In this document: positions 2,875 through 35,548 of the stretch, one piece after another | How the letters are laid out: every line of letters starts with the position of its first letter | Position numbering within the stretch: the first letter of the stretch is position 1 | NCBI GenBank assembly: GCA_041916675.1 | Contig: JAYRZB010000005.1 | Location: 121,789-185,788, forward strand | Length of the DNA stretch: 64,000 bases | DNA from: Devosia sp. | GTDB lineage: Bacteria; Pseudomonadota; Alphaproteobacteria; Rhizobiales; Devosiaceae | Direction: 5' to 3' | The notes under the pieces: generated by a model | The model's database searches: none | What the model saw: the letters and a program-made list of their open reading frames with translations, nothing else | What the model was told of the DNA's origin: nothing | Translations under genes and position numbers: made by a program

Positions 2875-3026
2875 GGCGGTCTCCGGCAATGGAGTTGATG
2901 TACGCCGAAGGGCCGGTGCTGTCACCGGAGCAAATTTTCTGCGAATCTCACCCAAGGATTGCATCGGCAGCAGCGTCCAAGCTTTAGTGACGGCCCTGAG
3001 TCTGTCGAGGTGGTCTGATCCGCGCC

Positions 3027-3572
3027 ATGCCGCAAGCCTTTGTTGATGAGAGTGGGGTGGCGCCCGAAAGCCTGGTGCTGCTCGCCCAGCGCGGGGACAG
3101 GGCAGCGTTTGCCGAACTGATCGGCCAGCACTACGACCTGATCTACCGCACGGCCTATAAATGGTCGGGCAACCGCAGCGATGCCGAAGACATTGCCCAG
3201 GATGTCTGCGTCAAACTGGGCAGCGTTCTGGGATCGTTTGACAACCGCTCGGCGTTTTCGAGCTGGCTCTACCGCATCACGCTGAATGCGGTGCGCGACA
3301 TGCAAAGGGCGCGCACGCGGCGCGGCAGGCATGTGGATGCGCTGGCCCAGGTGAGCCCGGAAGACTATCCGCCCGACCAGGAGGATGCGACCGCGGCCCG
3401 CGAACTCTGGGCTGCCGTGCGCGCCCTGCCCGAAAAGCAGCGCGATGCGGTGCTGCTGATTTATGTCGAGGACCTCAACCACGCCGCGGCCGCCGACATC
3501 ATGGGGTGCAAGGAAACCACCGTCTCCTGGCACATTCACGAAGCAAAAAAGACCCTGAGGGGACTTTTATGA
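3027..3572 (+). CDS. ECF-type RNA polymerase sigma-70 factor
   Basis: 181 aa. Region 2 (DAEDIAQDVCVKL, SWLYRITLNAVRD) and region 4 HTH (LPEKQRDAVLLIYVEDLNHAAAADIMGCKETTVSWHIHEAKKTL). Confidence 0.9.
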   Translation: MPQAFVDESGVAPESLVLLAQRGDRAAFAELIGQHYDLIYRTAYKWSGNRSDAEDIAQDVCVKLGSVLGSFDNRSAFSSWLYRITLNAVRDMQRARTRRGRHVDALAQVSPEDYPPDQEDATAARELWAAVRALPEKQRDAVLLIYVEDLNHAAAADIMGCKETTVSWHIHEAKKTLRGLL

Positions 3573-32359: not shown

Positions 32360-33340
32360 TCAGGCCTCAGCGGGCTTTGGGTTGCGGGTGCGCCAGAGCG
32401 AGTAGCCGATGCCGGAGGCAAGAATGGCAAAGGTGACGCCCAGCGACCATTCGGCAGGGAACTTGCCCAGCCCCAGCCAGTCGGCCACGAAGACTTTGGA
32501 CCCGATGAACACCAGCAGCACCGCCAGCGCCTGCTTGAGATAGGCAAAGCGGTGGATCACCGCCGACAGGGCAAAATAGAGCGCCCGCAGGCCCAGGATG
32601 GCGAAGATGTTCGAGGTATAAACCAGATAGGGGTCGGTCGTGATGTTGAAGATGGCCGGCACCGAATCGACGGCAAAGATCACGTCGGCGATCTCGATCA
32701 TGACCAGCGCCAGGAACAGCGGGGTCATGAACCGCGCGATCTTTCCGGTCTTGGGGTCGGGCTGATCGACAAAGAAGCGTTGACCATGCAGCTCATCGGT
32801 GATGCGGAAGCGCTTGCGCATGAACTTGAGCAGGCGATTGTTGGCAAGATCGGGCTCGTCATGGCCGGTAAAGAGCATCTTGATGCCGGTCAGCACGAGG
32901 AAGGCGGCAAACACATAGAGCAGCCAGCCGAACTGGCTGACGAGCGTTGCGCCAAAGCCGATCATGATGGCGCGCAGCAGGATTACCCCCAGAATGCCCC
33001 AGAACAGCACCCGGTGCTGATACTGGCGGGGGATGGCCAGGGTGGAAAAGATCAGGGCGATGACGAAGACATTGTCCATCGCCAGGGTTTTTTCGACCAC
33101 AAAGCCGGTCAGGTATTCGACGCCCGATTGCTGGCCGAGGCTGTACCAGACAAATCCGCCGAAGCCGAGGCCGAGGGCAATATAGAACGCCGATAACAGC
33201 AGGCTTTCGCGTACGCCGATCTCATGTTGATCGCGGTGCAGGACGCCCAGATCGAAGGCGAGCAGGGCAACCACCAGTCCAAAGAAGCCAAGCCACATCC
33301 ACAGCGGCTTGGACAGCAGTTCGATGAAAAGAAAATCCAT
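32360..33340 (-). CDS. TerC/Alx-family integral membrane protein
   Basis: 326 aa. LWMWLGFFGLVVALLAFDLGVLHRDQHEIGVRESL and two repeated DNVFV/DSVPA-type motifs of TerC. Confidence 0.9.
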   Translation of the reverse strand: MDFLFIELLSKPLWMWLGFFGLVVALLAFDLGVLHRDQHEIGVRESLLLSAFYIALGLGFGGFVWYSLGQQSGVEYLTGFVVEKTLAMDNVFVIALIFSTLAIPRQYQHRVLFWGILGVILLRAIMIGFGATLVSQFGWLLYVFAAFLVLTGIKMLFTGHDEPDLANNRLLKFMRKRFRITDELHGQRFFVDQPDPKTGKIARFMTPLFLALVMIEIADVIFAVDSVPAIFNITTDPYLVYTSNIFAILGLRALYFALSAVIHRFAYLKQALAVLLVFIGSKVFVADWLGLGKFPAEWSLGVTFAILASGIGYSLWRTRNPKPAEA

Positions 33341-33371
33341 GGGTTTGTACCGCCCGGCGCGGGGGAATGAT

Positions 33372-33427
33372 GCAGCGTCGACATCGTGGACGAGCCGGGT
33401 TCATCCACCAGAGGGGCCCGACGCTGC
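33372..33427. other. structured-RNA-like module B (P1 9 bp, internal loops, 5-bp hairpin)
   Basis: Plus strand: GCAGCGTCG-ACATC-GTGGA-(13 nt)-TCCAC-CAGAGGGGCC-CGACGCTGC. Lies 31 nt from TerC ATG 33340. Strand not resolved. Confidence 0.4.
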
Positions 33428-33556
33428 GTGGTCTTGGAGATGGGATTGTGATGCCTTTGCCGTCTCCTCGCTCACAGGCTCGATGGGGCCGGCAGATGCG
33501 TCACGGCAGGCGCGAGCCATTGCAGCGACGCGGATATCCTTCGGGCCCCGCGTTCA

Positions 33557-33606
33557 GTGAACCGACATCACGCACCTGTTCGATGCGTCAGAGGGGCCCG
33601 GATCAC
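33557..33606. other. structured-RNA-like module A (same architecture as module B with different stem sequences)
   Basis: Plus strand: GTGAACCG-ACATC-ACGCA-(9 nt)-TGCGT-CAGAGGGGCC-CGGATCAC. Loops are identical to module B. Both stems are changed but still pair, with one mismatch in P1. Confidence 0.4.
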
Positions 33607-34222
33607 GCTCGGCAGATGGGGATCACAGCGCATCGGTGCAAGGGGCGGTGCATAGATTCTGCAAGTTGCAGGTGCGGGGCCGCCGCCGAGGCGCTTTCGC
33701 AGTGGCCCAACACGCGCGCCCGGAGTTCGAATTTGCACAGCATTGCAACTGTCTCGAAAGCACGATTCCGGTGGCGTTGGCCCGCCAGGTTTGTTCGGAC
33801 AGTGCCGTCATGAAACTGGAATGCAAACCCTGTAAGTCTTTTCACCGACCGTTGTTTGTTTTCAATAACTGCTGATGTTCTTGAACGTTCTGACCACTTT
33901 CGTAAAAGAGTTGCGCGCGGATTGCCGAGATTCCGCCAAGTTCGAAACCTGCGTGATTATTTTCGTTTTTGCTCAAAATGAGGCAAATTCGAAAATTGCA
34001 GTCAAACTACAAAAGTAGCGTAAAAACTTACGTCACAAAAATATCATATATTTCAGGTTAGTAGTGCCAATCCGCTGGCGTTTTTCCCCGCTTGCGGTTG
34101 CGATTCCGCTGTTTCATACGAAAGGTCTCTTGCGAAGCGAAAGTTCGTTTGCTAGCGTTTGGCCATGAGAGGCCGCAACGACGGCCAATCGGGCATTCCA
34201 ATCGATCAAGGGAGGAGAAACC

Positions 34223-35548
34223 ATGATCAAGCACGCCCTCTACGTAGCCACCGCGCTTGCCGCGCTGACTGCTGCTACCCCCGCCTTCGCGCAGACTGAG
34301 ATCCAATGGTGGCATGCCATGGGTGCCGAGCTCGGTCAGAAGCTGGAAGCGATTGCACAGGGGTTCAACGAAACCCAGTCTGACTACAAAATTGTGCCGG
34401 TCTACAAAGGGACTTATCCTGAAACGCTGACCGCCGCGATTGCTGCGTTCCGCGCCAACGAGCAGCCGGCCATTGTGCAGGTTTTTGAAGTTGGCACCGG
34501 CACGATGATGGCTGCCAAGGGTGCAGTCTATCCGGTGCACCAGTTGATGGCGGACAATGGCGAACCGTGGGATCCGTCTGGGTTCCTGGCACCTGTGGTT
34601 GGCTACTACTCGGACACCGATGGCAACATCCTGTCGATGCCGTTCAATTCCTCGACCCCGATCATGTACTACAACAAGGACGTGTTCGAGAAAGCCGGAC
34701 TTGACCCGGAAGTGGCGCCCAAGACATGGGCCGAGGTTGAAGCGTTCTCGCGCAAGATCGTGGAATCAGGCGCGGCCAAGTGCGGCCTGACCAGTGCCTG
34801 GATTTCCTGGATTCAGCTTGAAAACCTGTCTGCCATTCACGACCAGCCCTACAGCACGCTGGACAATGGCTTTGGTGGCCTTGGCGCTGAATTCACCTTG
34901 AATGGACCGGTGCAGGTCAAGCACTGGGAAAACCTCAAGAAATGGGCCGATGAAGGCTTGTTCCAGTATGGTGGCCCGGTGGGCGGCAACGATGCTCCGC
35001 CCAAGTTCTATGCGCAGGAATGCGCAATCTACATGAACTCTTCAGGCTCGCGTTCGGGTGTGGTTGCCAACGCCAAGGACTTCAAGGTTGGCTTTGCGCC
35101 GCTCCCCTACTACGACGATGTCACGCAGGATCCCAAGAACTCCATCATCGGTGGGGCGACCTTGTGGGTGCTTAACGGCAAGTCTCCGGAAACTTACAAG
35201 GGTGTCGCAAAGTTCTTCACCTATCTGTCGAGCCCGGAAGTGCAGGCCGACTGGCACCAGGGTACCGGCTACCTGCCGATCACCAACGCTGCCTATGAAC
35301 TGGGCCAGCAGCAGGGCTATTATGCTGCCAATCCCGGTTCGGATGAAGGCATCAAGCAGATCACCCGCGGCACGCCGAGCGTGAATTCGAAGGGCATCCG
35401 TTTTGGCAATCTCACGCAGGTCCGTGACGTGATCGACAGTGAGTTCGAAGCACTCCTTGGTGGGCAGAAGTCGGCTCAGGAAGCGCTTGATGCGGTCGTT
35501 GAACGCGGCAACGTCATTCTGCGCGAATTCGAAGCCGCCAACCAGTAA
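34223..35548 (+). CDS. ugpB: sn-glycerol-3-phosphate ABC transporter substrate-binding protein
   Basis: 441 aa. GGGAGGAGAAACC precedes the ATG. Signal peptide, then QTEIQWWHAMGAELGQKLEAIAQGFNETQ, typical of UgpB. Confidence 0.9.
   Translation: MIKHALYVATALAALTAATPAFAQTEIQWWHAMGAELGQKLEAIAQGFNETQSDYKIVPVYKGTYPETLTAAIAAFRANEQPAIVQVFEVGTGTMMAAKGAVYPVHQLMADNGEPWDPSGFLAPVVGYYSDTDGNILSMPFNSSTPIMYYNKDVFEKAGLDPEVAPKTWAEVEAFSRKIVESGAAKCGLTSAWISWIQLENLSAIHDQPYSTLDNGFGGLGAEFTLNGPVQVKHWENLKKWADEGLFQYGGPVGGNDAPPKFYAQECAIYMNSSGSRSGVVANAKDFKVGFAPLPYYDDVTQDPKNSIIGGATLWVLNGKSPETYKGVAKFFTYLSSPEVQADWHQGTGYLPITNAAYELGQQQGYYAANPGSDEGIKQITRGTPSVNSKGIRFGNLTQVRDVIDSEFEALLGGQKSAQEALDAVVERGNVILREFEAANQ

Follow-up and report, generated by a model that had tools for sequence, protein, structure and literature searches.

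Introduction

In Devosia sp. (assembly GCA_041916675.1), an intergenic region of 882 nt separates a minus-strand gene for a TerC-family membrane protein from a plus-strand open reading frame for a solute-binding protein. A first-pass annotation of the window, the whole stretch of 64,000 nucleotides of contig JAYRZB010000005.1 that was analysed and to which all coordinates without a locus or contig label refer, had pointed to two modules in this region, with shared unpaired strands and with divergent helices that still pair. Both modules were found where they had been placed. The locus raises the question which element is repeated here, on which strand it acts, and how two copies came to precede a single gene.

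The yybP-ykoY riboswitch (RF00080), to which the E. coli alx leader belongs, controls TerC/Alx-type membrane proteins linked to Mn2+ handling. A second family, the terC RNA motif (RF03067), was published by Weinberg et al. (2017, Nucleic Acids Res 45:10811; PMC5737381) and was described there as a likely cis-regulator of TerC genes. Both families occupy the 5' leader of the same kind of gene; however, yybP-ykoY forms a four-helix junction, whereas the terC motif is a single hairpin of about 59 nt, and the two folds are unrelated.

Identity of the Two Modules

The region from 32800 to 34600 was searched on both strands against Rfam under permissive conditions (E up to 10). Two meaningful matches were obtained, both on the minus strand and both to RF03067, and each of them is a full-length match to the covariance model above its gathering score of 39.9 bits (Table 1). 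For RF00080, no match was identified on either strand of this region even at E = 10, in agreement with the earlier view that the modules are distinct from the yybP-ykoY riboswitch. In the 2.94-Mb assembly, RF03067 reaches its cut-off only twice, in both cases at this locus; the next match has a score of 19.8 bits with E = 0.94. Caulobacter vibrioides, included as a control, also contains a terC motif.

Table 1. Positions of the modules, the associated sequence elements and the flanking genes in the window.
Feature	Position	Strand	Remarks
TerC-family membrane protein gene	32360-33340	minus	326 aa; Pfam PF03741, E = 1.9e-50; presumed regulated gene
Module B, terC RNA motif copy 2	33369-33429	minus	RF03067, 50.2 bits, E = 3e-7, model positions 1-59
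-10-like box CCATCT, before module B	33438-33443	minus	corresponds to the AGATGGGAT flank of the first-pass annotation
Relic SD GAGGAGA of a putatively lost terB (GAGCGAGGAGA)	33463-33469	minus	in the decayed spacer 33430-33552
Competitor GGGGCCCGA (= GGGGCCCG(A))	33541-33549	minus	complementary to strand CGGGCCCC of module A over 8 nt
Module A, terC RNA motif copy 1	33553-33609	minus	RF03067, 44.6 bits, E = 6e-6, model positions 1-59
-10 box CCATCT, module A promoter	33614-33619	minus	17 nt after the -35 box; corresponds to the AGATGG(GGAT) flank of the first-pass annotation
-35 box CTTGCA, module A promoter	33637-33642	minus	begins 42 nt ahead of the invariant 11-mer
Extracellular solute-binding protein ORF, UgpB kind	34223-35548	plus	assigned by Pfam
			

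The modules are arranged head to tail, 124 nt apart, and module B is the downstream copy. For module B, the Rfam match stops 28 nt short of the terC start codon; the distance of 31 nt given previously follows from a narrower boundary drawn for the P1 helix. Each module consists of P1, an internal loop formed by GCCCCUCUG and GAUG, and the P2 hairpin. This is the layout of the terC RNA motif, the invariant GCCCCUCUG and GAUG strands of which are kept in both copies. The unpaired strands common to both modules read CAGAGGGGCC and ACATC on the plus strand, corresponding to GGCCCCUCUG and GAUGU on the minus strand. As in other members of the family, the gene that follows is of the TerC family and the organism belongs to the same bacterial class. 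It is very likely that the two copies of RF03067 are placed as cis-regulatory elements in the 5' leader of this gene. Since the terC RNA motif has already been described, novelty is confined to the head-to-tail tandem arrangement, in which the window differs from the other loci examined, where one copy per gene was found.

The window TerC is 75% identical to its closest orthologue, the TerC encoded at a locus of a Devosia metagenome-assembled genome (L026), and 79% identical to the terB-linked TerC of locus L021 from a sister genus. The likeness to these two terB-linked proteins extends over the whole length, including the N-terminus, and the start of the window protein (MD...) is conserved. 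A chimeric origin of TerC was considered and rejected, because every block of 40 residues matches the terB-linked type. Two more TerC-domain genes are present in the genome (C1:189816-190382 and C4:182168-182746); they are only distant kin of the window TerC and are not accompanied by a terC motif. Within the first 20 codons of terC, a terminator-like hairpin was identified on the minus strand (33288-33312), with a 9-bp stem followed by CTTCTTTGG. It overlies the codons of the conserved peptide WMWLGFFG; it may have arisen by chance from the protein-coding constraint, or it may serve for early attenuation.

Fold, Covariation, and Strand

For the comparison, the motif was taken from relatives and from 80 TerC-orthologue loci and was trimmed to landmark columns, which gave 77 sequences, 75 of them distinct. 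Among these 77 homologues, 18 columns are invariant; the 5' strand contributes CGG GCCCCUCUG to them and the 3' strand AUGUCG, and modules A and B keep all 18. In the 75 distinct sequences, 83.8% of the cells in P1 and P2 are paired, compared to 68.5% in shuffles; the set had been filtered for pairing beforehand, which flatters the former value and leaves the contrast with the slid controls unaffected. In these controls, in which the 3' partners were slid out of register, the covariation score was 0.04-0.15, as compared to 0.44 in register. Shuffled alignments gave 0.16, and none of 500 shuffles reached 0.44. Two-sided changes were identified at 13 of the 16 pairs.

Together with the RF03067 matches (E = 3e-7 and 6e-6), the covariation bears out the RNA fold that had been proposed for the modules from their comparison with each other. 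The same holds for the conservation upstream of terC orthologues, which had been named as a check: in 75 of 80 TerC orthologue loci from Alphaproteobacteria, the motif core was found upstream of the gene and on its strand, as a single copy in each locus.

The helices of modules A and B pair throughout, apart from a single U.U in P1 of module A. This mismatch had already been noticed and is indeed present; since the column is unpaired in 58 of the 75 family members, it represents the family norm and not a defect. Module B contains a perfect P1 of 10 bp. At two positions it carries a U-A pair in place of a C-G pair which is near-invariant in the family: U7-A39 is unique among the 75 sequences, and U21-A30 occurs in three of them. 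These compensatory double changes argue that the fold of module B has been under selection.

The strand of the RNA is fixed by the pair closing helix P1, which is G.U in all 75 sequences; read on the plus strand, this pair would turn into an A-C mismatch. A plus-strand RNA is excluded by this invariance, and the assignment of the modules as a cis-acting leader RNA of TerC on the minus strand, which is also the strand of both Rfam matches, stands. The GC-rich and palindromic character of the element, overlapped by an open frame of 148 aa on the plus strand (33367-33813), might be taken to suggest a REP or MITE repeat, a plus-strand small RNA or a protein-coding region. The probability of any of these is negligible: a REP or MITE is excluded since the genome contains only two copies, both at this locus, the plus-strand RNA is ruled out by the G.U pair, the open frame has no Pfam match, and across the Alphaproteobacteria the element is always located upstream of TerC-type genes on the strand of the gene. 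The plus-strand frame, which runs antisense to both modules, is almost certainly not a gene.

Putative Promoter Sequences at the Two Copies

For 101 copies of the terC motif, the preceding 90 nt were aligned. At a fixed distance, the alignment contains a -10 box similar to CCATCT or CCATAT and a -35 box that reads CTTGAA or CTTGCA. The tetramer TTG[AC] was found between -48 and -36 from the invariant 11-mer in 85 of the 101 copies, with a peak at -42/-41, compared to 8 of 101 in a control window, and a -10 box of the CCATCT/CCATAT type is present at the same position in many orthologous loci, for example, in L046, L054, and L029. Like most members of the family, module A lies directly behind such a predicted promoter of the typical alphaproteobacterial kind. 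The start at the promoter is a habit of the family seen in this analysis and is not part of the Rfam definition. From the two boxes of module A, and solely from their sequence pattern, the start of the transcript would fall at about 33608, at the beginning of the Rfam match. The locus is a clean example of the way in which the family sets in at the predicted start of transcription, downstream of a conserved promoter.

The similarity of about 25 nt (AGATGGGGAT in plus-strand reading) which had been observed to continue beyond the modules exists; it is the -10 box of the promoter, however, and lies outside of the RNA fold. Flank similarity between repeated RNA elements can be a mere shared promoter box. 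A generic sigma-70 scan missed the boxes of both modules and reported one site in the intergenic region, TTGGCA-N16-TATGAT at 34070-34043 on the minus strand. This site is located in an AT-rich stretch beside ugpB, points to terC, and lies about 430 nt upstream of module A.

The spacing of the -10-like box of module B to its motif is similar to that of module A. The hexamer 17 nt upstream of this box is GAGACG, a poor -35 box, and TTG[AC] is absent from the usual -35 window, so that copy B differs from the family in being devoid of the usual promoter. With the same -10-like box at a similar spacing before both copies, and with a promoter start being the habit of most family members, the modules might be two independent cassettes of promoter and motif, in which terC is transcribed through module B from its own promoter (33443-33438) and module A drives a separate short transcript. 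This arrangement is improbable, given a -35 hexamer that departs from the TTG[AC] present in 85 of 101 copies and a minus strand on which the scan found no terminator-like site between A and B. In the arrangement favoured here, terC would be transcribed from the promoter of module A through both motifs.

Origin of the Two Copies

Module A has its nearest relatives in the leader of L026 and in the terB-terC leaders of sister genera. From the L026 leader it differs in 7 of 27 variable columns; P1 is the same in both (GUGAUCCGG / CGGUUCAC), and a downstream GGGGCC element is common to them. In L021 and in most of 20 further genomes of the large sister genus, the leader is organized in the order promoter, motif, GGCAGGGCCCG, hairpin, anti-SD, SD, and start codon. 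The hairpin is of the type GGGCA..UGCCC, the anti-SD reads CACUCCCUCAG, and the SD reads UGAGAGGAG and is followed by the ATG of terB; AGAGG within this SD is complementary to CCUCU. In L021, the leader precedes a gene for a TerB-family protein of 161 aa (PF05099), which is followed by terC. Most of the terB-terC leaders compared (L229-L248 and L021) are conserved for about 110 nt after the motif, well past the 59-nt Rfam model, and a length of about 170 nt is possible for the functional unit.

In the window, the spacer from 33430 to 33552 keeps GCAUCUGC..GCCCCAUCGA..UGAGCGAGGAGA, in parallel to the terB-terC leaders of the sister genera, and the pieces kept reach down to the SD-like sequence listed in Table 1 as a relic. 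After this relic neither a start codon nor a gene was identified, and the anti-SD element of the sister leaders is missing from the spacer. A TerB homologue was not found in the genome, the assembly of which is 92.6% complete, so that a gap is possible. In front of terC itself, a weak SD-like GGGCGG is the only ribosome site, and no complement to GGGCCCCUCUG was found ahead of the start codon in the window.

Module B is of a different type. It differs from module A in 18 of the 27 variable columns, and from the whole set in a mean of 18.7 of 27. Its nearest relatives are the leaders L010, L020, L007, and L011, with 10-12 of 27 columns differing. The gene behind these leaders is a second TerC paralogue, which occurs in genera of the same bacterial family and is 55-59% identical to the window TerC. 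None of the three TerC-domain genes identified in the 92.6%-complete assembly is orthologous to this second paralogue.

This distribution suggests that module A is the leader of an ancestral terB-terC operon, from which terB and the ribosome-site hairpin would have been lost, and that a leader of the type of the other paralogue, module B, may have replaced terB together with the original ribosome site of terC. With the copies coming from two old leader lineages, the tandem would be a lineage-specific fusion and not a recent duplication. The chance that this account of the origin is right is put at somewhat less than even, and it is kept tentative because it was derived from 27 short variable columns and from an assembly of 92.6% completeness.

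Alternative Pairings and Possible Mechanism

In many loci of relatives, a hairpin is present in which an anti-SD pairs with the SD. Many loci also contain a downstream GCCCGG or GGGCCCG, which is complementary to the invariant CCGGGCC and the pairing of which would compete with P1. These expression platforms suggest translational control in the relatives. In L026 and L021, as in most of the 20 sister leaders, a GGGCC(C)G element is located at this offset from the motif. In the window, the competitor GGGGCCCGA is complementary to the invariant strand of module A, and the 9-mer is also a perfect complement, over 9 nt, to UCGGGCCCC of module B.

A shuffle test of the competitor for the window locus alone gave p of about 0.05. 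Tested per locus, a downstream complement was not significant, with a mean longest match of 5.45 nt as compared to 5.02 nt in shuffled sequences. Since the motif strand is invariant, the pairing is beyond a covariation test, and its support lies in the fixed position of the element within clades.

In the predicted minimum-free-energy fold of the whole leader, 33541-33549 pairs with 33600-33593 and replaces P1 of module A. The two states of module A are predicted to be near-isoenergetic, with -61.9 and -60.3 kcal/mol being 1.6 apart, whereas for module B the canonical fold is predicted at -37.3 kcal/mol, as compared to -29.0 or weaker with P1 blocked. Module A is predicted by these energies to be bistable and module B to be locked in the motif fold. 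For module B, neither an evident competitor nor a recognisable expression platform was found.

Whether both copies are in use has to be weighed against the possibility that only one of them works, module A being a leftover of the terB-terC leader kept for its promoter, or module B an inert insert. The platform behind module A is decayed, with the anti-SD of the 20 sister leaders gone and an SD relic without a gene, and the occurrence of the tandem in no other genome examined is what an accident of rearrangement would predict. On the other side, both modules keep 18 of 18 invariant nucleotides where a functionless motif in a GC-rich intergenic region would be expected to drift, pairing in module B has been kept by two compensatory double changes at near-invariant pairs, and module A retains the competitor strand and its predicted bistability. 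A single working copy is regarded as rather unlikely, and to the same degree it is doubted that the tandem is without a combined function.

When both copies are taken as active, a mechanism can be proposed in which each motif is a cis-acting sensor of a ligand or factor. Sensing would stabilise P1 against the pairing of CGGGCCCC with the downstream G-rich complement, and in relatives the choice between P1 and the competitor would be linked to the hairpin which hides the ribosome-binding site. For this switching mechanism the odds are judged to be close to balanced, if tilted slightly against it. Stably folded 28 nt from the start codon, module B might act by steric or factor-dependent control as one possibility.

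With respect to the signal, Mn2+ or a similar metal is plausible, given the roles of TerC proteins. The discoverers of the motif suspected Mn2+ or another cation owing to the association with TerC, and no cation altered the structure of the RNA (PMC5737381). A 2026 preprint still refers to the terC motif family as a "putative riboswitch". A partner protein is just as possible, and the label riboswitch is to be understood as putative.

The motif might be a protein-binding operator in the leader, the two copies serving as two binding sites rather than as parts of a ligand riboswitch. Such an operator would suit the small size of the motif, with one hairpin and an internal loop, the lack of a structural response to metal cations in the assays of the discoverers, and the predicted stable, non-switching fold of module B near the start codon, as expected for steric repression. 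No candidate protein gene is consistently linked to the motif, however, many loci contain alternative pairings and ribosome-site hairpins which resemble riboswitch platforms, and the family was still termed a putative riboswitch as of 2026. The operator is considered unlikely, though by no means negligible.

Returning to the sensor mechanism, the two motifs might work together as a two-stage gate in a single terC leader, put together from the leaders of different TerC paralogues. The one GGGGCCCGA element that lies between the copies could pair with the invariant strand of either and would in this way couple their states. Such a gate is a distinctly unlikely outcome.

Distribution of the Tandem

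The RF03067 model was searched in 61 relatives, 401 genomes of the class, and 243 genomes of the family, and 30 genomes with several matches were listed again. In these approximately 700 genomes, no second case of two terC motifs on the same strand within a few hundred bases was found. The other close pairs are arranged back to back on opposite strands (G101 and G226) or, on the same strand, are separated by about 930 nt (G447). The back-to-back pairs, at G101:C2:1489503-1489712 and G226:C157:2785-3024, are alphaproteobacterial with about 100-130 nt between the motifs, and presumably serve divergent genes.

Two exact invariant 11-mers 41-221 nt apart were sought by pattern scans of 185,579 species genomes; for a metagenome collection, the gap between the exact 11-mers was set to 161-221 nt. 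Among the 129 rows obtained from species genomes and metagenomes with this exact-match pattern, the source genome of the Devosia locus being left out, no tandem of terC motifs was identified either by regular expression or by Rfam.

In L130 (Azospirillum brasilense; 2901-3084, minus strand), a near-miss, one true terC motif is present, and about 140 nt upstream of it lies a bare ACCGGGCCCCTCTGAACGG, which lacks a 3' half and may be what is left of an earlier second copy. Two Rhodobacter-like metagenome-assembled genomes, L095 (2623-2687 and 3915-4015) and L096 (about 2635), contain a second terC motif between terC and the gene that follows it; L095 also has a TPP riboswitch about 1.2 kb beyond the second motif. 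In L015 (1501-2059), the motif is followed by a small open reading frame, MKCPIDDTQLV...CPSCRGVWLDRGELD, which is zinc-ribbon-like, and then by TerC, an order that fits the COG3809 association described in PMC5737381.

In the searchable literature, the 2017 paper (PMC5737381) is the only one describing the terC motif, and tandems of the motif are not reported; they are unmentioned in the main text of that paper and in the 2022 review on tandem riboswitches (PMC9481103), which leaves aside tandems of orphan candidates. As a layout, the tandem is a curiosity of a single genome.

Comparison to Tandem Riboswitches and Significance

The terC motif is an orphan riboswitch candidate which is widespread in Alphaproteobacteria and tied to TerC metal-handling proteins, and for which no signal has been found since 2017. 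In validated riboswitch classes, a tandem makes the response sharper and more digital; Welz and Breaker reportedly described tandem TPP riboswitches in Bacillus anthracis in 2007. Tandems are typical of ligand-sensing RNAs. The Devosia leader, with both copies on the same strand, 124 nt apart and with no terminator-like site between them as read from the DNA, would share with tandem riboswitches (TPP; PMC9481103) the serial arrangement, within one leader, of two complete sensor domains that belong to the same class. It differs from them in that the sensor class is putative, copy B has no separate expression platform, and the arrangement occurs in a single genome.

The locus does not add a new RNA class, and represents a unique natural construct of two diverged copies of the motif in series. 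For the family as a whole, the sister leaders indicate a conserved unit which exceeds the 59-nt Rfam model and extends through the competitor strand, the hairpin, the anti-SD, and the SD. Should the two-stage gate be true, this orphan candidate would have its first natural tandem and, since tandems are typical of ligand sensors, the leader would provide a compact genetic system, with A only, B only, or both copies, for finding the signal to which the terC motif responds.
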